From Gemmatimonadales bacterium (GTDB lineage Bacteria; Gemmatimonadota; Gemmatimonadetes; Gemmatimonadales; GWC2-71-9), in the NCBI GenBank assembly GCA_035488835.1, contig DATHKX010000205.1, forward strand, positions 9,686 through 73,685: a DNA stretch of 64,000 nt, given 5' to 3'. The translations under genes and the position numbers were made by a program. Positions within the stretch are counted from its first letter, which is position 1, and each line of letters opens with the position of its first letter. A model generated the notes under the pieces. It did not search any database and was not told the DNA's origin. It worked only from the letters and a program-made list of their open reading frames with translations. Positions 4,320 to 62,299 of this stretch are shown one piece after another.

Positions 4320-6977
4320 CTACTCTTTGGGTGTCAGCAGCTCCTGGTACGCCGGGTAGTCACGCAGCGACCGGAGCGACGGGTAAAGGTGCATCACCCC
4401 GCCGCGTGGATACCCCTGGGCAAACGCCTCTTGCACCAGCGCGACGGCGGCGTCACGGTCGCCGAGGACGGCGTGGATCCGAGCCCGCCACATCGTGTGC
4501 CTGCCGTAGAGATACCGGGGGCTCATCGCCTGAAGCGTGCGCTCGAACCCCATCGCGTCAGCACGCCTCTCCTGGCGCGCCGCTAGCACTCCCAGAAAAC
4601 CCTGGACGGTCACCCGATCGGGCGAGTCGCCCGTGATGACCGCGATCCACCGCATAGTGGCGTAGTCCGGCACGCCCGCCGCCCGCTCCGACGCGAGACC
4701 CTCGAGCATGCGCCGCGCGTCGTCGACGCGGCCGTTCACGTAGTACGCGAGGGCGAGACGAAACCGGTTGGCCACCGAGCTCACCTCCGCGGGCGGCCGA
4801 CCTTCCAGCCAACGCACGGCCCACCCGCCGGCGGCGGGCGCGTCCGCTTGGTGATCGTGCGCCGCCAGCTCGAGCGCCGCGATCAGGGCGATGTCGGCGG
4901 GGGACCAGCCCGGCTGTGGCGGGAGACTGGGCGCATCGATCAACCGCTCGTTGATCTCGGCGGCCCGCCCCAGGGCGGCGAGCGCCCGGACCTCGGCCGC
5001 GAGCACGGCGAAGTCCGCGGGGTGGCGCCGCCGTCCTTCGCGCGCCTCCTGCAACTCGCGGCGGTGATCACCCACCAGGTGGTAGCCGAAGGTCAGGTAG
5101 AACCAATAGACCGACCAGCCGCGGAACAGGCCGCGATCGGGCCCGAGGGTGGTAAGGGCGGCGATCATTTCCCGCGGGCGATTGAGCGCCAGCGCACACT
5201 GCGCCACCAGCCACAGTACCTCGGAATTCGGCGCGATGGCGGCCATCTCGCGCGCCGTCTCGAGCGCTCGCTGCCGGTCGCCCCGGCTCTGGACGAGCAC
5301 CCACGCGAGGTAGTGCTGGTCGAGTGGAGAAAGGCGGCCGGGAGAGCGCTCCACCGCGTGCGCGATCGAGTCCGCCGTGGCGAATTCCCCCAAGTCCATG
5401 TGCTCGTGCGCTGCGAAGATCAGCGGCAGACGGAAGGTCGGGTCCTCCTGCGCGGCACGCCGGAAGTGGTCGATGGCGCCGCGTGAGTCGAACTGTACCA
5501 TCCGGTCTAGCCCCTGGATGAACTCCTGGTACGCCGCGAAGGTGGGCGGCTGGCCGGCGGCCTTGGCCCACAGGCTCAAGCGCGAGTCGAACAGCGTCGC
5601 GAGCGTGGCCATCACCCGCTGCCGGACGGCTTCCACGGCGACGAGCGGCTGCGAGATCGGTCCCGCCACCGGCTCGAGCGCGCGCAACACCGTGCCGTCC
5701 GTCGCCGCGGAGATTTGGACCTGGAACCGGATGCTGTCCGCCTGGCGATAGTAGGCCCCGGAGACCACCGTGCCCGCGCCCGTCTCGCGCCCCAGGGTCT
5801 GAATCCCGGCGGCGTCGAGATGGCCCGAGCTGTGCCCGCCCGGCGCGACCGACGCGGTCATCACCGACATCGACGACACCACTTCCACCAGGCCCGTCTG
5901 CGCGAGGCCCTGCGTCACCCAATCGGCCGCCATGTGGCCCACGTTGTCGAGCGAAGGGTCCCCAGTGTGGTTCTCGATCACGGCCACGACCACGCGATGC
6001 TGGTTGAGCTGCGATCCGCTACGACGCAGCACGTGAGCCGCGGTGCCGACGCCGAGCAGCGCGACCACAATCCCCAGGGCGAACGCGATTTTGCGTCCCC
6101 GCCGGCCGTCGAAAATGCCTCGCGTCGGCACGCTCGCGCGATAGGCCGGTGCTCCGAGCGCGGCCGCGAACTCGGTCACGGCGGGGAACCGGTCATCGGG
6201 CAGCGGGGCCAGAGCGCGAGAAATCGCGTGCTTGACGGCCCGCGCGACCGCCCCCGGGGCCCCCTGCAGGGCCCGGCTGGTCTCGAGCGCCGCCCAGTTG
6301 TGCACCCGGCGTTCCGTCATGCTCGCCACCGGCGGCTCCCCCGCCAGCATCTCGAACAGCACGCAGCCGAGGCTGTAGATATCGGTCCGTACGTCGAGGT
6401 CGCCGAGCCCCATCGCCTGCTCCGGGCTCATGTAGCCGGGCGAGCCGATCGGCTGGCCGGCCTGGGTGAGCGTCAGACTCCCGGCGGCGCTGATGGCGCG
6501 CGCGATCCCGAAGTCGGCCACGATCGCGTGCACGCCCGACAGCAGGATATTCTCCGGCTTGATGTCGCGGTGGATGATCCCCTGTGCATGGGCGAAGGCG
6601 AGCGCATCGGCGACGTCGCTGGCGATGTGCAGCGCGTCTTCGAGCGGCAGCTTCCGGTCCCGGAGCAGGCGATGCCGCAGCGATTCCCCCTCCACGTACG
6701 GCATGACGTAGTAAAACAACCCCCCCACTTCTCCGGCTGAAAAAATCGGCACGATATGGGGATGGCTGAGGTTCGAGGAGAGGTCCACTTCGCGAATGAA
6801 CCGCTCGCGCAAGAGGCGCGTGGACACTTCCGGGTCGAGCACCTTGATCGCGACCCGCCGGTGGGGATGCTGCTCCACCGCCAGGAACACCCGGGCCATG
6901 CCCCCGGCGCCGATTTCGCGCTCCACGTCGTAGCGGGGCGCCAGGCTCGCGCGCAAGGTCTCGAGCACGTCAACCAT
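4320..6977 (-). CDS. Ser/Thr protein kinase with one TM segment and a large TPR-like extracytoplasmic C-terminal domain
   Basis: GAGGMARVF glycine loop, VAIKVL, HRDIKPENILL, DFGIARA, GSPGYMSPE. Hydrophobic segment IAFALGIVVALLGVGTAA, then ~550 aa of helical repeat-like sequence. Confidence 0.9.
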   Translation of the reverse strand: MVDVLETLRASLAPRYDVEREIGAGGMARVFLAVEQHPHRRVAIKVLDPEVSTRLLRERFIREVDLSSNLSHPHIVPIFSAGEVGGLFYYVMPYVEGESLRHRLLRDRKLPLEDALHIASDVADALAFAHAQGIIHRDIKPENILLSGVHAIVADFGIARAISAAGSLTLTQAGQPIGSPGYMSPEQAMGLGDLDVRTDIYSLGCVLFEMLAGEPPVASMTERRVHNWAALETSRALQGAPGAVARAVKHAISRALAPLPDDRFPAVTEFAAALGAPAYRASVPTRGIFDGRRGRKIAFALGIVVALLGVGTAAHVLRRSGSQLNQHRVVVAVIENHTGDPSLDNVGHMAADWVTQGLAQTGLVEVVSSMSVMTASVAPGGHSSGHLDAAGIQTLGRETGAGTVVSGAYYRQADSIRFQVQISAATDGTVLRALEPVAGPISQPLVAVEAVRQRVMATLATLFDSRLSLWAKAAGQPPTFAAYQEFIQGLDRMVQFDSRGAIDHFRRAAQEDPTFRLPLIFAAHEHMDLGEFATADSIAHAVERSPGRLSPLDQHYLAWVLVQSRGDRQRALETAREMAAIAPNSEVLWLVAQCALALNRPREMIAALTTLGPDRGLFRGWSVYWFYLTFGYHLVGDHRRELQEAREGRRRHPADFAVLAAEVRALAALGRAAEINERLIDAPSLPPQPGWSPADIALIAALELAAHDHQADAPAAGGWAVRWLEGRPPAEVSSVANRFRLALAYYVNGRVDDARRMLEGLASERAAGVPDYATMRWIAVITGDSPDRVTVQGFLGVLAARQERRADAMGFERTLQAMSPRYLYGRHTMWRARIHAVLGDRDAAVALVQEAFAQGYPRGGVMHLYPSLRSLRDYPAYQELLTPKE

Positions 6978-7063
6978 GCGCGCAACTTAGCGGACCCTCG
7001 ACTGTGGGTCGAGCGGCACGACGGGCCCCTGGCCGATTTCGTCCCGCGAGCTAAAATGTCCCC

Positions 7064-9301: not shown

Positions 9302-11868
9302 ACAGGGCGCGAGGGCGCTGGATTGGGTTCGGACTCGCGGCAGCGCTCACCCCTGTGGCCCTCGCCGGGCAGGCGACGGCGCCGGCCCGCGCGCCAACCA
9401 AGCAGACCGTGGTCGCGGGAGACCACTACCGCGCGGGGTGGTTGCATCGCCTGTTCCTGGGCTCGCATTACCGCGACCTGTGGGCGACGCCCCTCGACGT
9501 CGAGGTGCTCGACTTGTCCCGCTTCGCCGGCGGGCTCACCCCCGCCGGCTGTGGCGGCCGGCGGCAAACGAAGGTGCTGCGCCTGCTGGGCAAGGATGGG
9601 CGGCAGTACGTGTTCCGCTCGGTGGACAAGGATCCCACGTTGGCGCTGCCGCCCGAGCTGCGGGCGACCTTCGCCAAGAAACTGGTGCAGGATCAGATCA
9701 GCTCGGCGCATCCCGGCGCGCCGCTGGTGGTCGCCCCGCTGCTCGATGCCGCCGGCGTCATGCACGTGGAGCCGCGGATCGCCCTCCTGCCCGACGACGC
9801 GCGCCTCAGCGGGTTCGATTGCGTCCCCCCTGGCTTCAAACTCGGTATGATCGAGGAGCGCCCCACGGAGCCTCCGGACAACGATGAGGGATTCGCCGGG
9901 GCGGTCGAGCTCGCCGGGACGAAGAAGCTGTTCGAGCATCTCGAGCACAGCTCTCGCAACCGCGTCGACTCGCGCGCCTATCTCGCCGCTCGACTGGTGG
10001 ACGTCTTCATCGGCGACTGGGACCGGCATCAGGACCAATGGCGCTGGGCGCGCTTCGATTCCGGCGGCGTCCATTGGTGGCGCCCCATCCCGCGCGATCG
10101 CGACCAGGCGTTCGCGCGCCTCGACGGCGTGCTCCTGTATCTCACCGGGTACTACTGGCCCCAGCTCATCGGCTTCGGCGACAAGTACCCGAGCATCTGG
10201 CGCCTCACCTTCACCGGGCAGGTCCCCGATCGGCGGCTCCTCGTGGATCTCGAGAAGCCGGTGTGGGACTCAATCGCGCGGACGATCCAGGTGCGGCTCA
10301 CCGATTCCGTAATCGACGCTGCCGTGCGGCGGCTGCCGCCCGAGTACTATCGCAAAAGCGGCGCCGCCCTCACCCGGGCGTTGCACCAGCGGCGCAATCA
10401 CTTGTTGCAGGCCAGCGACCGCTACTATGCGCTGCTCGCGGGCGTCGTGGAGGTCCATGGGACCGATGAGCGCGATGTCGCCGAGGTCGAGCGTCTCGGC
10501 GGTGGACGCGTCTCGGTGCGCCTGTCGGCTGCGGGCGCGACAGCACCGTACTACCGCCGGACGTTCGACGGCCGCGAGACGGAGGAGATCCGCGTCTACC
10601 TGCACGGCGGGGATGATCGACTCGTCGTGCGCGGCGCCGCCCGATCGGGACGCGGCCCGCTGCTGCGGGTGATCGGAGGGGGTGGGGATGACGAGCTGAC
10701 GGACTCCTCGCGCGCCGGGGGGACGAAGTTCTACGACGACCGTGGGAACAACCGGTTCGTGCGAGGACCAGGGACGTCCGTGAGTCGACGGCACTACGAC
10801 GAGCCGCCGCGCGACACGTCGACGCTCGGCCGGCCGCGTGATTGGGGGTCACGCTGGATGCCCCTCACGTGGGTCGGCTACTCTCCCGACGTCGGGCTGC
10901 TCGTCGGCGGTGGTGCCAGCGGGACTGGGTACGACTTCCGACGACTGCCGTACAACTCGCAGGTGAGAGTGCGGGCCGGATATGCGACGGCCGCCCAAAC
11001 CTACCGCGCCGAGTTCACGGGCGAATTCCGCGGCATCGTGCCTCCGGTCGTCGTGACGCTCCAGATGCGTGCGTCGGGGATCGACGTCCTCCGATTCTAC
11101 GGCTTCGGGAACGAGACCCCTGACACGGGCTCGCAGAACTTCTACAAGGTGAAGCAGCAGCAGTACCTCGTCGCGCCTGCCCTGGCATTCTCACTCTCGC
11201 CGGCCGCGACGCTCTCGATCGGCCCCGTGCTCAAGTTCTCCCATACCAACCTCGTGGGCGGCACGTTCATCAACGTCGCGCGGCCCTACGGCGTCGAAGA
11301 CCTGGGGCAGGTCGGCGCCGCAGCGGACTTTCAGGTCGACACTCGGGACCAGCCGCGTGCCGCGCGCCGCGGGATCGCCTTTGGTTTCGGCGGGAGCTAC
11401 TACCCAGCGGCGCTGGACGTGACGGCGCCGTTCGGCGAGGGCCATGCCGAGGCGAGCTCGTACCTCACGGCCCACATCCCGCTGCAGCCGACGCTCGCCC
11501 TCCGGGTCGCCGGGAAGAAGGTTTGGGGCAGCTATCCCTTCTATGAGGCGGCGTATATCGGCGGGGCAACGACGGTGCGCGGCTTCGTGGAGCATCGCTT
11601 CGCCGGCGACGCCGCCCTGTACGGGAACGCCGAGCTGCGGCTGTCCGTCGCCAAGTTCTACCTGCTGGTCCCGGGCCAGCTGGGCGTGTTCGGCCTCGGC
11701 GACGCGGGACGCGTCTACCTGTCGGGCGAGACATCGGACCGCTGGCACGCGGCTGCCGGGGGAGGCGTGTGGCTCTCGTTCCTGAGTCCCGCCAACACGC
11801 TGTCCGTGGCCGCGGCGCATAGCGTCGAGGGTACGCGCCTGTACGTGAAAGCCGGGCTGGCGTTCTAG
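9289..11868 (+). CDS. Omp85/BamA-TamA family outer-membrane beta-barrel with a ~450-aa N-terminal domain of unknown function (kinase-like motifs)
   Basis: ATG at 9289 lies in the frame of ORF 8683..11868 and gives a signal peptide (GFGLAAALTPVALAGQA). The C-terminal third shows Omp85 hallmarks (IGGATTVRGF, alternating hydrophobic strands, terminal ...YVKAGLAF). The start overlaps the metallophosphoesterase stop by 13 nt. Confidence 0.75.
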   Translation: MAQLNRARGRWIGFGLAAALTPVALAGQATAPARAPTKQTVVAGDHYRAGWLHRLFLGSHYRDLWATPLDVEVLDLSRFAGGLTPAGCGGRRQTKVLRLLGKDGRQYVFRSVDKDPTLALPPELRATFAKKLVQDQISSAHPGAPLVVAPLLDAAGVMHVEPRIALLPDDARLSGFDCVPPGFKLGMIEERPTEPPDNDEGFAGAVELAGTKKLFEHLEHSSRNRVDSRAYLAARLVDVFIGDWDRHQDQWRWARFDSGGVHWWRPIPRDRDQAFARLDGVLLYLTGYYWPQLIGFGDKYPSIWRLTFTGQVPDRRLLVDLEKPVWDSIARTIQVRLTDSVIDAAVRRLPPEYYRKSGAALTRALHQRRNHLLQASDRYYALLAGVVEVHGTDERDVAEVERLGGGRVSVRLSAAGATAPYYRRTFDGRETEEIRVYLHGGDDRLVVRGAARSGRGPLLRVIGGGGDDELTDSSRAGGTKFYDDRGNNRFVRGPGTSVSRRHYDEPPRDTSTLGRPRDWGSRWMPLTWVGYSPDVGLLVGGGASGTGYDFRRLPYNSQVRVRAGYATAAQTYRAEFTGEFRGIVPPVVVTLQMRASGIDVLRFYGFGNETPDTGSQNFYKVKQQQYLVAPALAFSLSPAATLSIGPVLKFSHTNLVGGTFINVARPYGVEDLGQVGAAADFQVDTRDQPRAARRGIAFGFGGSYYPAALDVTAPFGEGHAEASSYLTAHIPLQPTLALRVAGKKVWGSYPFYEAAYIGGATTVRGFVEHRFAGDAALYGNAELRLSVAKFYLLVPGQLGVFGLGDAGRVYLSGETSDRWHAAAGGGVWLSFLSPANTLSVAAAHSVEGTRLYVKAGLAF

Positions 11869-11870
11869 GC

Positions 11871-14800
11871 ATGACGCCTGAGTGGAAGGCAGAGGTCCCG
11901 AGCCTGGACCTGCTGAACCGCATGGTGACAGATCCACTTCCGGTGGGCCTCAGCTCCGGTCTGGTAGAGCCGTTCTTCCAACGCGACATCTACTTCGACT
12001 CCGCCGACTGGACGCTGCGTCGGCGCGGCGTGAGCTGCCGGTTCCGTATCCGGGTCGACGACCGGCGCATCCTCACGCTGCGCACCATCGGTCGGTGGGA
12101 GGGCGGCGTCCCGTTGGTGTTGCCGCAGACATTCGAAGCCGAGGTCGCCGAGCTCGAAGGCGAGCAGGCGCTCGCCGGCACGTCCGACCCGGCGCGACGC
12201 CTGCGCTCCCTCATCGACCCGGCCCTGCTGTTGCCCCGGATCCAGTTCGAAACCGAGCGGCGCGTGCGGCACACCGAGGCCGGGTGGTTCTCGCGGGGAC
12301 GCTACGACGTCGTGTACGACGTCGTGACGGTCCGGAGCCGTCAGATGGCGGTGGCGTTCGAGGAGCTGAAGGTCCGGGAGCTCGCGCGGGGCCGGCCGGG
12401 CCTCGACCGCCTGGCCCAGGCATTTCAGGAGCGGTATGGCCTGCGCCCGTCGCTGGTGGGGAAGGTAGACCGGGCCGCCAAGCTGTTGCGCGATCTGGAA
12501 AGCGGCGCCCTGGCGCAGGTCGCCCGCGCCGGCCGGGAGGTGGTCGTGGTCGCTGTCGAGGAGGGGTCCGTCGCCATGCTGACGGAATCGACCTCGCTCA
12601 CGTTGCCCGTGCGAGGCGGTAGCGGCGAGGAGACGTGCCGTGAGATCCTGCGCGCCTTTTTCGGGAGCGCGGACGGACAGGTACGGTTCCTCGGCACGGC
12701 CCCTGGGGGGTTGGCGGGCACGAGACCGGTGCTCGAGGTCTGGCTGGCGCGGCGCGTCGCCGGGGGCGCCGGTGTCGCGGGACGAGTGCAGTGGCTGCCG
12801 TTCGACGACCTGCTCGCCGCGGCCGGTTCGCCCGGGCTACGCGACCCCCGGACGCTCGCAGCGCTCACGGTGGCGGCGCGGTCGGACGTGCTCGCCGGCT
12901 GGACGCGGGGCCCTGAGCCGGTGCGGGGTGCGGCGCCGGGCCCGGCGGGCGAGCGCCGGGTGCGACTGTCCGAATACGCGCTGCGCTCCCCCATTCCCGA
13001 CATCGACCACCCAGGAGCCGAGCACTTCCTGAACGGCGATCTGAGCCTGATCGAGTTCAACGCCCGGGTACTGGAGCTGGCGGAGGACACGAGCGTCCCG
13101 CTGCTCGCCCGGGTCCGGTTTCTGTCCATCCTGAGCGCGAACTTGGACGAGTTCTTCATGGTGCGTGTCGGCGCCCTGAAGCGCGCGGCGGCAAAAGGGG
13201 GCCCGGTGGAGGTGGGTGAGGGCGGTCTCGCCGCGGACGAGCAGCTCAACGCCATCGGAATCCGGGTGCGGGCCCTGCTCGAGCGACAGTCGCGCTGTTT
13301 CACCGACGTGTGCGTGCCGGCGCTCGCCGCGCACGGCGTCCGGATCCTGCGCTGGACGGACCTGGCGGCGCCCCAACGAGAGTCGCTGCGCCGCTACTTC
13401 TCGGAGGAAGTGTTCCCCTTGATCACCCCGCAGGCCATGACGCGGGCCCCGGGGCACCCCTTCCCGCTCATTCCCACCATGCGCCTGTCCCTCGCCGTCG
13501 TGGTGCGCGACGCCCCGGGCGGACCGATGCACTTCGCCTACTTGAAGGCGCCGGAGACGCTGCCCCGCTTCGTGAAGCTCGCGGACGGGAGCGGGTTCGT
13601 CGCGGTGGAGGACGTCATCCGCGCGAACCTGAGCCAGGTGTACCCGGGCCGATTCGTGGAGGAGGCGTACGCGTTCCGCGTCACGCGCGGCGCCGACCTC
13701 GAGCTCGACGAGCATCATGCGGTGAGCTTGCTGCAGGTGATTGATGAGGAAACCAAACGGCGGCCTTACGGTGCCGCGGTACGGGTGGAGATCGCCGGCG
13801 AGATGCCGGAGGCGGTACGGGAGCTCTTGCTGCGCGAGCTGCAGTTCGAGGAAGCAGCGGCGAGCAGCCCCCCCGGCGCGGGGGATCTGTATGCGGCGGA
13901 CGGCCTCCTCGACCTCGGAGCGCTGCGCGAGCTCGCGCGCCTGCCGCTCCCCGAGCTGGACTACCCGCCGCACCGGGGCGGCGCGCCGATCGAGGAGGGC
14001 CGGTCTATCTTCGCGATCCTGGCGGAGCGGGACATCCTGGTGCACCACCCCTACGACGCGTTCGAGGCCACGGTACAGCGACTCGTAGCCGAAGCCGCGG
14101 ACGACCCGGATGTCGTGGCGATCAGACTGACGCTGTATCGCGCGGGCGGCCGCTCGGATATCGTCGAAGCGCTGCTGCGGGCCGCGGGACGCGGCAAGGA
14201 AGTGTTCGTCTTTGTCGAGCTGAAGGCCCGGTTCGACGAGGAGCGCAACATCGAGTGGGCCAAAAAGCTCGAGCAGGCGGGCATCCGGGTGGTGTACGGC
14301 CTGGTCGAGCTCAAGACCCACGCCAAGATCGCGCTCATCGTGCGCCGCGAGCGCGACGGGATCCGACGTTACGTGCACATCGGGACCGGGAACTACAACG
14401 CCGCGACGGCGGCGCTCTATACCGATGTGGGGCTCCTGTCGGCCGACCCCGAACTCGGGGCCGACTTGAACGACCTCTTCAATGAGCTCTCAGGCTCGTC
14501 GCGGCCGCCCCAGACCGCCTTTCGGCGGATCCTGGTCTCACCCACCTACCTGGCGAATCGCCTGGTCGAGCTGATCGATCGAGAATCACAGCACGCTCGG
14601 GCAGGCCGCGACGCTCGGATTCGCGCCAAGCTCAACGGGCTCACCGATCCGGAGATCATCACGGCTCTGTATCGCGCGTCGCAGGCGGGCGTCGAGGTCG
14701 CGCTCGTCGTGCGGGGCGTATGCACGCTTCGTCCCGGCGTGGTGGGGCTGTCGGAACGCATCCGTGTCGTCAGCGTCCTCGGCCGGTTTCTCGAGCACGC

Positions 14801-15080
14801 GCGCATCTACGCCTTCGCCAACGATGCCGACGCCGAGTACTACATCGGCTCCGCCGATTGGCGGGTGCGGAACTTACGGCGGCGGGTGGAGGTGGTGACG
14901 CCGGTGCGGGACGCGGTCGCCCGCGCGCGGCTCGACGCCATTCTCGACGCGGAGCTGGACGACCCCACCGCCTGGGACCTCGATCCCGACGGCGGCTATC
15001 ATCGCCGCGCGCCGGCGCCCGGCCGGGATCCCCGAAGCTCCCAGGAGCGGCTGCTCGGTCTGGCCAGTGCCATTGCCTGA
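11871..15080 (+). CDS. ppk: Polyphosphate kinase 1 with an N-terminal CYTH (triphosphate tunnel) domain and a Nudix-like linker domain
   Basis: The C-terminal ~700 aa are canonical PPK1 (LSLIEFNARVLELAED, RFLSILSANLDEFFMVRV, two PLD-like HxK regions: ELKTHAKIALIVRRE, RFLEHARIYAF). The N-terminal ~200 aa match the CYTH pattern (EWKAEV..., QRDIYFDSADWTLRRRGVSCRFRIR, FEAEVAE, AFEELKVRE). Starts 2 nt after the OMP stop. Confidence 0.9.
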   Translation: MTPEWKAEVPSLDLLNRMVTDPLPVGLSSGLVEPFFQRDIYFDSADWTLRRRGVSCRFRIRVDDRRILTLRTIGRWEGGVPLVLPQTFEAEVAELEGEQALAGTSDPARRLRSLIDPALLLPRIQFETERRVRHTEAGWFSRGRYDVVYDVVTVRSRQMAVAFEELKVRELARGRPGLDRLAQAFQERYGLRPSLVGKVDRAAKLLRDLESGALAQVARAGREVVVVAVEEGSVAMLTESTSLTLPVRGGSGEETCREILRAFFGSADGQVRFLGTAPGGLAGTRPVLEVWLARRVAGGAGVAGRVQWLPFDDLLAAAGSPGLRDPRTLAALTVAARSDVLAGWTRGPEPVRGAAPGPAGERRVRLSEYALRSPIPDIDHPGAEHFLNGDLSLIEFNARVLELAEDTSVPLLARVRFLSILSANLDEFFMVRVGALKRAAAKGGPVEVGEGGLAADEQLNAIGIRVRALLERQSRCFTDVCVPALAAHGVRILRWTDLAAPQRESLRRYFSEEVFPLITPQAMTRAPGHPFPLIPTMRLSLAVVVRDAPGGPMHFAYLKAPETLPRFVKLADGSGFVAVEDVIRANLSQVYPGRFVEEAYAFRVTRGADLELDEHHAVSLLQVIDEETKRRPYGAAVRVEIAGEMPEAVRELLLRELQFEEAAASSPPGAGDLYAADGLLDLGALRELARLPLPELDYPPHRGGAPIEEGRSIFAILAERDILVHHPYDAFEATVQRLVAEAADDPDVVAIRLTLYRAGGRSDIVEALLRAAGRGKEVFVFVELKARFDEERNIEWAKKLEQAGIRVVYGLVELKTHAKIALIVRRERDGIRRYVHIGTGNYNAATAALYTDVGLLSADPELGADLNDLFNELSGSSRPPQTAFRRILVSPTYLANRLVELIDRESQHARAGRDARIRAKLNGLTDPEIITALYRASQAGVEVALVVRGVCTLRPGVVGLSERIRVVSVLGRFLEHARIYAFANDADAEYYIGSADWRVRNLRRRVEVVTPVRDAVARARLDAILDAELDDPTAWDLDPDGGYHRRAPAPGRDPRSSQERLLGLASAIA

Positions 15081-35999: not shown

Positions 36000-36845
36000 T
36001 CAGGCTCCCGTCCCCGGCCAGCTACCGCTCGCCAACGCGGACCCTGCATCCGCCCACCGCGTGCTCGGCTCGGCGGCGCGACAGCGGCGCTCGAGCTCGG
36101 CGAGCCAGGCCGGCACCGAGCGGACCTCTTCGAGCGGCTCAGGGTTGCCGGCGGGTGGCCGCCCCGTCAGCATCTCGTGCACGAGGACCCCCACGGCGAA
36201 CATGTCGTCCCGCGTGCCCGGCGCGGCCTGGCCGGCCCGGCGCTCGGGCGCCAGGTAGTCGGTCGCGCACAGCGCCGCCGTCGCCGCCCCGCCGCCGTCG
36301 CCGGTGAGGGCCTGTGCCAACGCACCCACAATCCCCGTGTCGGCGACCAGGGCCTGCCCGTCGCCGAGCAGCACGTTCTCGGGCTTCAAATCGCCGTGCG
36401 CGACGCCGTCGGCATGAGCGTGGGCCAACGCCGCGAGCACGTCCCGCAGCACCTCCACGGCCCGCCGGAGCGGCAGCTCTCCATGGCGCGCCAGCCAGGC
36501 CCGCAACGTGGTGCCCTCGACGAACGTTCGGGTATGGTAAACGAAGGGTCCCGCCCTACCGGCGCCGCGCGGAGCCACGAGGCCCGGATGCTGGAGCCGA
36601 CGGCCCAGCCGCGCCATGTCCTGCTCGAATCGGGTGGAATCGACGGCGAGCGACAGCGGGCCGGGCAGCACCTTCACCAGGAGGCCGCTGCCGGCAGACC
36701 GTTCGAGGGCCACGAACATGCGGCAGTTGCCGACGGGTCGCACCTCGCGCTCCACCCGGTACGCGGGCTCGAGCGCGTGCCCCAATGCCGCGCGGAGATC
36801 AGCCATGAATGTGCGAATATGGTGGCGGGCTGCCGTTGCCCGCAA
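36000..36845 (-). CDS. Atypical stand-alone Ser/Thr kinase-like protein (non-RD, DTG)
   Basis: LLVKVL (Lys present), HGDLKPENVLL (HGD instead of HRD), ADTGIVGAL (DTG instead of DFG), DYLAPE. The glycine loop is degenerate (VRPVGNCRMF). Confidence 0.7.
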   Translation of the reverse strand: MRATAARHHIRTFMADLRAALGHALEPAYRVEREVRPVGNCRMFVALERSAGSGLLVKVLPGPLSLAVDSTRFEQDMARLGRRLQHPGLVAPRGAGRAGPFVYHTRTFVEGTTLRAWLARHGELPLRRAVEVLRDVLAALAHAHADGVAHGDLKPENVLLGDGQALVADTGIVGALAQALTGDGGGAATAALCATDYLAPERRAGQAAPGTRDDMFAVGVLVHEMLTGRPPAGNPEPLEEVRSVPAWLAELERRCRAAEPSTRWADAGSALASGSWPGTGA

Positions 36846-36943
36846 CCGTCCGGGATGGGCAGCAGGCCGTCGCGAATCCCTGACGCGACTATTCGCGGAC
36901 CCGTGACATCGTAGAAGGTAGTTCCCTACCGGAGGAATCGACG

Positions 36944-37552
36944 ATGCAGATCCGCCGTGGTACGATCGGGTGGATCGCGGCGATGCTCGCTGCGCTCATC
37001 GGGGTCGTCGCGTGGCGCGGGGTGGCGCGCAGTCAGCAGCAGGATCCACCGGAGGATCAGCTGCCGCGATTTGCGCAGCGCGACCAGCTCCTGAAACCCG
37101 TGGGTTGGGAGGCCTGGGTGATGGTCGGCGCCTCCACCGGGCTGTCGTACGCCGCCGCGCCCCTGCCGGCGGCAGGCGCCGCGCCCGGGATGTTTCACAA
37201 CGTCTACGTGCAGCCCTGGGCCTATCGCGAGTTCGTCCGGACGGGCGCGTTCCCCGAGCGCACGATGTTCGTGCTCTCGTTCTACGAGGCGTCGCGCAAG
37301 TCCACGCCGGCGCGGGCCGGCTTCTACGAAGGGGATCGGGTGCCGGCGATCGAGGTGCACCTGAAGCAGGCGGGCATCGACAAGACCGGCTGGGGGTTCT
37401 TCGGGTTCGGGGACAGCGCGGCGACCGCCGCGATGATCCCGGGGGCGGCCTCGTGCTACTCCTGCCACGCCACCGAGGCCGCCCACGACCAAGTGTTCAC
37501 CCAGTTCTATCCGCCGCTGCGGGAGCGGCTGACGCGGGCGGGCGGGCACTAG
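36944..37552 (+). CDS. Cytochrome P460-family haem protein (membrane-anchored or secreted)
   Basis: N-terminal hydrophobic anchor and a single C-terminal CYSCH (CxxCH) haem motif. About 200 aa with FHNVYV / WGFFGF segments consistent with the P460 fold. Confidence 0.7.
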   Translation: MQIRRGTIGWIAAMLAALIGVVAWRGVARSQQQDPPEDQLPRFAQRDQLLKPVGWEAWVMVGASTGLSYAAAPLPAAGAAPGMFHNVYVQPWAYREFVRTGAFPERTMFVLSFYEASRKSTPARAGFYEGDRVPAIEVHLKQAGIDKTGWGFFGFGDSAATAAMIPGAASCYSCHATEAAHDQVFTQFYPPLRERLTRAGGH

Positions 37553-47273: not shown

Positions 47274-47406
47274 TTCACCTCAACGGAGTGGCTTCGCGAT
47301 CTCCCAAGGTGCCCGAAGTGACGCAGAATCTCTACCGGGAAACGCGGCAAAGCAATTCGCTCTAGAGCAGGTTATGCTCCAGACTTCCCGAACGCGGAGC
47401 CTTCCG

Positions 47407-47847
47407 ATGGATGAGACGCTCGAAGCCGGTGTGGTGCTGGTGCGTGGGAGCGCAGCCGGGTTTGCGCAGAAGATCGCAGCCGGTCGCCATCGTTTTGTGG
47501 GGGACGAGCCGGTTGCCGACGGCGGCACCGATACCGGCCCCGGTCCGTACGACCTCCTCCTCGGTGCCCTCGGCGCCTGAACGTCGATGACCATCGCGCT
47601 GTACGCGCGACGGAAGCAGTGGCCTCTCGACGACGTAGAGGTCCGTTTGCGGCATTCGAGGGTGCATGCGCAGGATTGTCGTGATTGCGACACGAAGGAG
47701 GGAATGCTTGACGTGATAGAGTGCGAGATCGCACTGAACGGCGAGCTTTCCGCGGAGCAACGGAACCGCTTACGCGAGATCGCGGAACGGTGTCCGGTGC
47801 ACCGCACGCTCACCTCAGAGATCAAGATCCGGACGCGACTGATCTGA
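47407..47847 (+). CDS. OsmC/Ohr-family peroxiredoxin-like protein interrupted by one in-frame TGA (47578-47580) at the conserved Cys position (Sec candidate or pseudogene)
   Basis: ORFs 47248..47580 and 47587..47847 are in the same frame. Joined, they read ...[14 protein letters not shown][TGA][12 protein letters not shown]...[11 protein letters not shown]. The family consensus at this point is ALxxC followed by a second Cys in a CPV context. ATG at 47407 gives a ~146-aa product, typical for OsmC. Confidence 0.6.
47594..47610 (+). other. Small GC hairpin 13 nt downstream of the in-frame TGA (candidate bacterial SECIS core)
   Basis: TCGCGC-TGTAC-GCGCGA: 6-bp stem, 5-nt loop containing GU. The loop starts 19 nt after the UGA. 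An outer CGTCGA/TCGACG pairing (47582-47587 with 47627-47632) is possible. Confidence 0.3.
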
Positions 47848-47876: not shown

Positions 47877-48089
47877 TCAGTCGCCTTCGTACTTGAAGGA
47901 AACCTTGATCTTCGCGCGATAGCTCTCGACCTTGCCGTCTTTCAGCTGCATGTCGAGTTGCGAGATCTCCGCCACCCGTAGGTCGCGCAGCGTCTTCGCC
48001 GCTAGCTTGACCGCCGCGGCAGCGGCCTTCTCCCAGGACTCGGTGCTGGTCCCGACCAGCTCGATGACTTTATAAACGCTCTCCGCCAT
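47877..48089 (-). CDS. Dodecin family flavin-binding protein
   Basis: 70 aa. SVYKVIELVGTSTESWEKAA ... LRVAEISQLDMQLKDGKVESYRAKIKVSFKYE is the dodecin signature. GGAG RBS 8 nt upstream of the ATG. Confidence 0.8.
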   Translation of the reverse strand: MAESVYKVIELVGTSTESWEKAAAAAVKLAAKTLRDLRVAEISQLDMQLKDGKVESYRAKIKVSFKYEGD

Positions 48090-61376: not shown

Positions 61377-61404
61377 AACTTAGACCGCTGACCCGGGTTT
61401 GTAA
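61377..61404 (-). promoter_or_regulatory. Candidate sigma-70-type promoter for rpsO
   Basis: The minus strand reads TTACAA-16 nt-TAAGTT about 35 nt upstream of the rpsO ATG, in the divergent spacer shared with the kinase gene. Confidence 0.3.
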
Positions 61405-61411
61405 AGCCCTC

Positions 61412-62299
61412 GTGACCCATACTCCTCCCCCGCCCACCGACCTACTCGGCCGCACGGTCGGCCCCTACGACCTCGAGCGTCTGCTCGGCCAGGGCGGCTT
61501 CGCCTGGGTGTTCGCGGGTCGGGAGCTGGACGGGACCGCCGTCGCCGTCAAGATCCTGATGCCGCGCTACGCCGGCGACCCCCAGTTCGAGAGCCGGTTC
61601 CGCAACGAAGCCGAAACCGCCCAGAAGCTCCAGCACCCGAACATCATCCGCATCCGATTCGTGGCGCGCTCCGGGAGTTACGTCTACTTCGCGATGGACC
61701 TGTGCCCGGACTCGCTCGCCGCGCGGCTCGAGCGCGAGGGCCCGCTCCCCGAGGCCGACATCGTGCGCGTCGCGGGCGACGTGGCCCGCGCGCTCCAGTT
61801 CGCGCACGCCCAGGGGGTAATCCACCGCGACCTGAAGCCCGACAACATCCTGCTCCACTCGGACGGGCGCGCCGTCCTCTCGGACTTCGGCATCGCGCGG
61901 GCCGTCTCGGGCTACGTGGCCTCCACCGGCGTGAACATGACGATCGGAACGCCGCAATACCTGTCGCCCGAGCAGGCCCAGGGGCGACCCCTCGACGCGC
62001 GCCTCGATTTCTACGCCCTGGGGGTCACGCTCTTCAAGGCGGCGATCGGCGAGGTCCCCTTCGCCTCCACCGATTGGTTCGAGCTGGCGCGAATGCACGT
62101 AGAGGCCGCTCCACCCTCGCTGCGGAAGAGGCGGCCGCAGCTGTCCAAGCGGTTCGAGCGCGTGGTGATGAAATGCCTCGCGAAGCATCCCGACGATCGC
62201 TACCGCGATGCTGCCGCGCTGCTCGCCGATCTCGCGGCGGTGGACGGAACGGCCCCGGCGGGGTTGCTGGCGCGCTGGCGGGACTGGTGGTCAGGCTGA
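61412..62299 (+). CDS. Ser/Thr protein kinase (catalytic domain only)
   Basis: [45 protein letters not shown] start. Confidence 0.85.

Follow-up and report, generated by a model that had tools for sequence, protein, structure and literature searches.

A predicted selenocysteine codon, accompanied by a conserved downstream hairpin, in place of the catalytic cysteine codon in an OsmC-like gene from Gemmatimonadales

Introduction

OsmC-like selenoproteins have been known since 2005, when Zhang, Fomenko and Gladyshev described three Sargasso Sea sequences of COG1765 that carry a UxxT motif (PMC1088965). In the GOS data analysed in 2008, the OsmC-like family comprised 5 selenocysteine (Sec)-containing versus 161 cysteine (Cys)-containing sequences, and few selenoproteins were found in non-aquatic metagenomes (PMC2398784). 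The OsmC-like selenoproteins have since been listed in reviews (PMC9312934, PMC13188914). A preliminary description of the locus studied here, made from the DNA letters alone, had stated that such proteins were reported in metagenomic surveys, and the surveys of 2005 and 2008 bear this out.

The present work deals with an OsmC-like gene located in a stretch of 64,000 nucleotides of DNA from a Gemmatimonadales bacterium, the whole of which is referred to below as the window. The window is a housekeeping segment of the chromosome, encoding PNPase, ProRS, HisRS, MreBC, PBP2, RodA, GuaA and PPK. Selenoprotein genes are typically recognized by a TGA that stands where homologues from other sources encode a redox Cys, and a G-U dinucleotide in the loop is typical of bacterial SECIS elements. 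Here we describe how the gene in the window and its relatives compare with this signature.

Results

From ATG 47407 to its terminal TGA, the OsmC-like gene runs in one frame that contains a single internal in-frame TGA, and Cys homologues of 146 aa are collinear with it from the same MDETLE start (Table 1). With Cys put at the TGA, the 146-aa read-through product scores 62.4 bits against the Pfam family OsmC (PF02566; cutoff, 27.5) over residues 40–143. The layout proposed in the preliminary description (the ATG, the lone TGA, the end and the read-through product) was thus correct in every part, as was its assignment of the protein to the OsmC family. Elsewhere in the window, TGA is an ordinary stop that terminates most of the genes, as it does the OsmC-like gene itself, and a genome-wide reassignment of this codon is therefore excluded.

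Table 1. Features of the OsmC-like gene (window coordinates).
Feature	Coordinates	Strand	Remarks
Predicted OsmC-like selenoprotein gene, complete	47407–47847	+	146 codons including Sec58; stop TGA at 47845–47847
GGAG, putative Shine-Dalgarno-like sequence	47396–47399	+	7 nt 5' of the ATG; read from the letters
UGA predicted to be read as selenocysteine, residue 58	47578–47580	+	Peroxidatic Cys position of OsmC proteins
Candidate SECIS hairpin core	47594–47610	+	Stem UCGCGC (47594–47599) and GCGCGA (47605–47610); loop UGUAC (47600–47604)
H83-x3-H87-x3-C91-x2-C94, subfamily-specific motif	47653–47688	+	Loop between two long beta hairpins
Cys129 codon, CPVH motif, presumed resolving Cys	47791–47793	+	Invariant in alignments A1 and A2

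The neighbourhood of the gene varies from clade to clade, for which reason the gene was treated as monocistronic; a functional operon with neighbouring genes was considered and dropped because the context is not constant across clades. Within the clade that includes the window and loci L001–L010, the order AA-permease, GNAT, OsmC, dodecin, DUF4386, PALP and MarR-GNAT is kept, the GNAT gene near OsmC being strain-variable and found in some strains only. The 70-aa dodecin gene (47877–48089, minus strand) converges on the OsmC-like gene, with 29 nt between the two stop codons. Farther away in the window are Ser/Thr protein kinase genes, at 1560–2366 and 61379–62299 on the plus strand and at 4320–6986 and 36000–36995 on the minus strand; two of these ORFs cover just a portion of the kinase domain profile (152–253 and 52–202) and may be fragments or have mis-delimited starts. 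The polyphosphate kinase ORF (11823–15080, plus strand, taken from stop to stop) has ~400 residues in front of its kinase domains, with a match to the CYTH domain, and this stretch may be either truly fused to the kinase or a separate gene lying in frame ahead of it.

The TGA falls at the N-terminal conserved redox Cys of the family, as had been supposed from the letters alone. In the subfamily profile, the Sec/Cys column aligns with the Cys of Thermotoga maritima OsmC (1vla, GCTGM), and residues 43–69 of Escherichia coli OsmC (1qwi) are aligned with residues 42–68 of the query, an offset that puts residue 58 opposite Cys59, the peroxidatic Cys of the family. The second redox Cys is likewise retained in its CPV context: Cys129, in an invariant CPVH motif, is matched in the alignment by the CPV motifs of both 2pn2 and 9wo1. 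Both redox positions of OsmC/Ohr proteins are accordingly present, one in the helix (predicted Sec58) and the other in the CPV motif (Cys129). An AlphaFold2 model of P0001, a Cys form 86% identical to the window protein, was obtained with a pLDDT of 81.8 and has residue 58 within the long central helix formed by residues 47–69. When this model was submitted to Foldseek, the top 50 PDB matches were all OsmC/Ohr proteins (probability 1.0, TM ~0.55), and the protein as modelled has the OsmC/Ohr fold.

The window protein also carries an HxxxHxxxCxxC motif, in which H83, C91 and C94 are invariant and H87 is nearly so, and which lies between strands 74–87 and 100–112 in a loop of lower model confidence. 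Classical OsmC/Ohr proteins lack this motif, and PDB 9wo1 has it in its C-terminal domain; the motif may bind a metal or act as a second redox pair. The best NCBIfam match of the window protein is NF041052, 'OsmC-related (seleno)protein', with a score of 57.2 bits that lies below the cutoff of 95, and relatives of both kinds, three Sec and three Cys forms, score 50–66 bits and also lie below it. The model for OsmC family peroxiredoxins, TIGR03562, gave no match to the window protein at E <= 0.01 and only 17–18 bits, versus a cutoff of 85.8, with two relatives. In place of UxxT, the window protein has the motif U-T-S-M-T, in which Met occupies +3 and Thr occupies +4; the Sec column is homologous nonetheless.

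In the protein database, the 34 closest full-length homologues (67–85% identity, alignment A1) all have Cys at the TGA column, in the context ALGA-C-TSMT. Only Cys forms appear there because gene callers split the Sec forms into a 57-aa and an 86-aa ORF; the Sec forms being invisible among intact ORFs, we searched the DNA directly. An index of public assemblies lists the exact 86-aa downstream ORF on 34 blocks, and at least 22 independent contigs carry the split gene. In 10 out of 10 contigs inspected, from ENA, NCBI and JGI samples, the 57-aa and 86-aa split and the TGA were present, and the DNA of the gene differed from that of the window at 2–33 nt (up to 7.5%), with no frameshifts and no extra stops.

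A TGA-specific DNA pattern, L-G-[AST]-TGA-T-S-M-T-x-[AG]-x-Y-A, gave at least 120 matches in the metagenome collection, and nearly all of the matches listed are complete OsmC-like genes with TGA at the Sec58 codon. Among the matches listed, 111 copies are fully covered and 105 of these are intact over 50 codons upstream and 86 codons downstream; the intact copies represent 102 unique DNA sequences, with pairwise protein identity down to 50% (median, 71%). The patterns used in this work accepted TGA, or else TGH (TGA, TGC or TGT), at the Sec codon, TAA and TAG lying outside both. Combined, the TGA-specific and the Cys/Sec-neutral DNA scans yield at least 133 different genes with TGA, whose proteins are as little as 50% identical. 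By the Nei-Gojobori method, the Sec forms have a dN/dS of 0.23–0.25 upstream of the TGA (codons -50 to -7) and of 0.21 downstream of it (codons +13 to +86), values that are equal to or lower than those of the Cys forms (0.24–0.33). Judging by these ratios, the region 3' of the TGA is translated and under purifying selection like the region 5' of it.

Some TGA-form copies depart from this general picture. Copies L013, L035, L039, L084, L114, L124 and L128 are frameshifted or truncated, which may reflect assembly errors or real decay, and 6 of the 111 fully covered metagenome copies among the matches listed are not intact. The 1.8-kb contig L020 (WNGH01181371.1) carries tandem Sec-form OsmC-like genes (807–844 and 1704–1741) situated 897 nt apart, and in the Methylomirabilota MAG DASZOL01 the Sec form occurs twice, on different contigs (L190 and L209). 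The 2.6-kb contig L134 (CAZOOE010000791.1), from a MAG labelled 'Clostridia', encodes a Sec-form protein nearly identical to those of Acidobacteriota loci L207 and L223, and its label is probably a binning error.

The Cys/Sec-neutral pattern (TGH) was run on one genome per GTDB species and gave at least 120 matches. Among the 120 matches listed, TGA was found in 36, TGC in 72 and TGT in 12 species-representative genomes, so that the Sec form accounts for ~30% of the sampled species (36/120). The preliminary description had suggested aligning orthologues at this codon, with TGC throughout the close relatives as an argument against Sec; such uniformity is indeed what the protein database displays, but it does not extend to the DNA, in which the TGA form recurs. 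By the database labels of the matching genomes, and again among the matches listed, the Sec form was found in 15 Gemmatimonadota genomes and the Cys form in none, with 14 Sec and 1 Cys in Methylomirabilota/Rokubacteria, 5 and 31 in Acidobacteriota, and 1 and 4 in Planctomycetota; Cys forms alone were seen in Verrucomicrobiota (36), Myxococcota (5) and Alphaproteobacteria (3).

In a UPGMA ordering, the window protein groups with the Gemmatimonadales MAG proteins L176 and L249. Its closest Cys forms, P0001 (TGC, L252:1277–1717) and P0005 (TGT, L251:6001–6441), are nested within the Gemmatimonadota Sec cluster; they keep the entire hairpin ATCGCGCTGTATGCGCGA, with the rare CGA codon included, and their gene neighbourhoods are unlike that of the window. 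To judge from these sequences, P0001 and P0005 seem to have reverted recently from Sec to Cys, with the SECIS left as a fossil. In the same crude ordering, the Sec forms fall into two clusters with one common hairpin sequence, which suggests a single origin of the Sec form and its transfer between phyla, rather than repeated invention.

The hairpin begins 13 nt after the TGA and its loop begins 19 nt after it, and in the window two further C-G pairs lengthen the stem to 47591–47613. The hairpin of the preliminary description was found where it had been placed, at 47594–47610, with the offset of 13 nt, the 6 bp and the 5-nt loop; the stem is not purely GC as was stated there, its first pair being U-A, followed by five G-C/C-G pairs. 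Folded from the window sequence alone, a 30-nt segment of this 68% GC DNA gives -12.9 kcal/mol (z = -2.07), with 9 of 200 shuffles folding as well, and an 81-nt segment gives z = -1.4. Judged in this way the hairpin is only marginally better than chance, and since these single-sequence statistics are weak, its significance was taken from the relatives. The motif is unique within the 64-kb window.

Among the matches listed, the six stem pairs of UCGCGC[UGUAY]GCGCGA are formed in 36/36 TGA genomes versus 0/84 TGY genomes, and the minimum free energy of the segment from +10 to +40 is -13.1 ± 0.9 kcal/mol in the former versus -6.1 ± 2.8 kcal/mol in the latter (Mann-Whitney p = 1e-16). Both forms were ascertained alike, with a pattern that left third codon positions free. 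Codons +6 to +10 read GCG CTG TAY GCG CGA in all 36 TGA genes of the matches listed, and in the unique Sec genes (at least 133) the four hairpin codons are GCG in 133/133, CTG in 131/132, GCG in 133/133 and the otherwise rare CGA in 132/133, corresponding to a synonymous-codon entropy of ~0. The other four- and six-fold degenerate codons of the same Sec genes (n = 64) have an average entropy of 1.52 bits (minimum, 1.00), and the Cys forms have 1.7–1.9 bits at hairpin codons +6, +9 and +10; the comparison of Sec and Cys forms leaves aside codon +7, where the majority residue of the Cys forms is Met. With a median pairwise dS of ~1.1 in the Sec genes, synonymous sites elsewhere in these genes are heavily diverged, and conservation of the hairpin is therefore attributed to selection on the RNA and not to shared ancestry. 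The stem is nearly invariant, the lone change seen being a closing U-A to U-G in L216, and as it hardly varies, classical covariation is nearly absent and the argument rests on the frozen synonymous sites. As to the question raised in the preliminary description, whether the hairpin co-varies in orthologues, the hairpin is present with TGA and absent with TGY among the matches listed, and its stem hardly changes. These findings agree with the description of bacterial SECIS elements (PMC1088965): the hairpin follows the UGA closely, its apical loop is small and includes G, and among the matches listed its conservation is specific to UGA forms.

No selA, selB, selD or tRNA-Sec was detected in the 64-kb window by Pfam annotation of the ORFs, neighbourhood tables, ARAGORN or tblastn, and a scan of the window with Rfam at gathering thresholds and with ARAGORN gave no matches. 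ARAGORN identified ordinary tRNAs and no tRNA-Sec in 250 loci, and tblastn with E. coli SelA, SelB and SelD probes, applied to the window together with 1.6 Mb from related loci, returned only one weak GTPase match, in L177. In the literature, we found no statement of Sec use in Gemmatimonadota, Rokubacteria or Methylomirabilota/Methylomirabilis. When the 64-kb window was scanned for further in-frame TGAs flanked on each side by coding signal, only an ordinary gene end at 2345 emerged, and three same-frame ORF pairs split by TGA that were considered as selenoprotein candidates proved to be simply adjacent genes.

Discussion

We consider it highly probable (roughly 0.88) that the TGA described here is a Sec codon at the catalytic Cys of an OsmC-like, thiol peroxidase-like protein, as was first suggested from the letters alone. 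Several observations support this interpretation: the recurrence of the TGA, the existence of Cys homologues, the hairpin specific to TGA forms, the alignment with the helix Cys and the literature precedent. As expected of a selenoprotein gene, the in-frame UGA is aligned with the Cys of homologues and has conserved sequence on both sides. Incorporation of selenium, dependence on SelB, peroxidase chemistry and any role of the HxxxHxxxCxxC (His2Cys2) motif are inferred. By analogy with E. coli fdhF, SelB would bind the mRNA hairpin UCGCGC[UGUAC]GCGCGA and then deliver Sec-tRNA(Sec), by which the UGA would be decoded. As in the OsmC/Ohr family, Sec58 would reduce a hydroperoxide and be converted to the selenenic acid, which Cys129 of the CPVH motif would resolve to a selenenylsulfide, and a thiol or lipoyl-type reductant would then recycle the latter.

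The preliminary description had offered two alternatives, a sequencing error and a recent nonsense mutation, neither of which withstands the finding of the TGA on at least 22 independent contigs and the breadth of its conservation. A sequencing or assembly error that hides a true TGC has in its favour only the general prior chance of error at any one base of an assembly, and it is made vanishingly improbable by the occurrence of the same TGA in different samples and with different assemblers, in strains up to 7.5% apart in the gene, and in 36 species-representative genomes among the matches listed. In a pseudogene, a TGC/TGT-to-TGA nonsense mutation would have inactivated the gene and left its downstream part untranslated; a single base turns TGC into TGA, a few TGA copies are frameshifted as well, and the nearest homologues in the protein database are all Cys forms. 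Yet the TGA genes number at least 133, with identity down to 50%, 105 of the 111 fully covered metagenome copies are intact, dN/dS downstream of the TGA is 0.21, and frozen synonymous sites preserve a hairpin that is specific to TGA forms. In L007, 20 of 20 downstream substitutions are synonymous, although this locus was chosen by its protein identity. Loss of the gene by mutation is extremely unlikely and can be regarded as effectively refuted.

Purifying selection on both halves would also fit a split gene, in which translation stops at the UGA and restarts at ATG 47587 (Met61), 6 nt past the TGA, and the 57-aa and 86-aa pieces, which are exactly the ORFs that gene callers predict, form an OsmC-like fold devoid of its catalytic residue. 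However, Met61 is invariant among the Cys forms as well, so that this ATG is no peculiarity of the TGA forms, and it lacks a Shine-Dalgarno motif in front of it; the break coincides exactly with the codon of the catalytic Cys, within a long helix, and the invariant hairpin that accompanies TGA and only TGA is left unexplained, all of which renders the split gene very unlikely. The UGA might also be recoded in some way that does not involve Sec, whether through hairpin-stimulated read-through that inserts Cys or Trp, or through a Sec machinery that inserts Cys when selenium is scarce. This would agree with the outcome of the searches for Sec machinery in the window and related loci; a downstream structure could in principle slow termination, and Cys at this site would yield an active enzyme, as in the Cys forms. 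Nevertheless, the position of the hairpin, its small G-U apical loop and its invariance fit a SECIS of the SelB type (PMC1088965) and not a generic read-through stimulator, OsmC-like selenoproteins are already documented, and replacement of a redox Cys by TGA, with Cys homologues elsewhere, follows the usual pattern of selenoprotein genes. We therefore leave only a small chance to recoding of this kind, and decoding of the UGA as Sec is preferred over all these alternatives.

If the Sec reading is right, these genes may constitute a distinct, previously unrecognized selenoprotein subfamily, a proposal that we put forward tentatively and at slightly less than even odds. It would comprise an OsmC-like clade with the U-T-S-M-T motif, the HxxxHxxxCxxC loop and an invariant SECIS, in which, among the matches listed, Sec is the usual state in two abundant soil phyla, Gemmatimonadota (15/15) and Methylomirabilota (14/15), and occurs sporadically in Acidobacteriota and in Planctomycetota. 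Current models do not appear to capture this subfamily, its frozen SECIS or its predominance in the two phyla, and because the NCBI selenoprotein model misses it, its members in soil metagenomes are wrongly annotated as pairs of short ORFs. All public assemblies inspected call the gene as the 57-aa and 86-aa ORFs; at least 133 genes are mis-called in this way, and the real number must be larger. These observations point to Sec use in Gemmatimonadota and Methylomirabilota, two major and little-studied soil phyla. They would imply that Sec is used routinely in largely aerobic soil lineages, and that an ongoing Sec-to-Cys reversion leaves behind fossil SECIS hairpins such as those of P0001 and P0005. 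The pairing of TGA with an invariant hairpin, together with the Cys revertants that still bear it, offers a clean system for studies of Sec/Cys exchange, and the hairpin may be used as a search handle for further selenoprotein genes in these two phyla.

E. coli OsmC and bacterial Ohr proteins (1qwi/1nye, 1zb9 and 6eb4 among others), which reduce organic hydroperoxides by means of Cys, share with the window protein the fold (Foldseek probability 1.0), the catalytic residue in a helix and the CPV-type Cys; unlike the window protein, to which they are just 14–22% identical, they have Cys in place of the predicted Sec and no additional His/Cys loop. Among solved structures, the nearest relative is a C-terminal domain (E = 1.5e-34, residues 259–392) in PDB 9wo1, a protein of 400 aa named 'Osmotically inducible protein C' on which no paper was found in the literature. 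This domain has the helix motif GACT-MT, the DCxDCE loop and CPVH, but contains Cys instead of Sec and is fused to an N-terminal domain of ~255 residues that is missing from the window protein. On the RNA side, the hairpin resembles the SECIS of E. coli fdhF in lying directly 3' of the UGA inside the coding sequence and in having a small G-U apical loop. In both cases the element constrains the peptide, Ala64-Leu65 being fixed in the Sec forms of the window subfamily and variable in its Cys forms. It differs from the fdhF element in its sequence and stem, with no bulged U in the 6-bp core, and binding of SelB to it is putative.

The marine OsmC-like selenoproteins are similar to the window protein in several respects: the OsmC fold (PF02566), Sec in place of the helix Cys in the same column, widespread Cys homologues, and, shortly after the Sec codon, a SECIS hairpin whose small apical loop contains G. 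The Thr of their UxxT motif aligns with Met61 of the window protein (compare SCMLT in 2pn2 and GCVMT in 3cje). They are distinguished from it by the motif, U-T-S-M-T in the window subfamily, by its extra HxxxHxxxCxxC and by the scores of 50–66 bits versus the cutoff of 95 in NF041052; on account of the score, the motif and the loop, we regard the window subfamily as a variant and not as a member of NF041052. Finally, whereas the marine family is rare, with three and five sequences in the two surveys, members of the window subfamily come from Gemmatimonadota, Methylomirabilota and Acidobacteriota of apparent soil origin.
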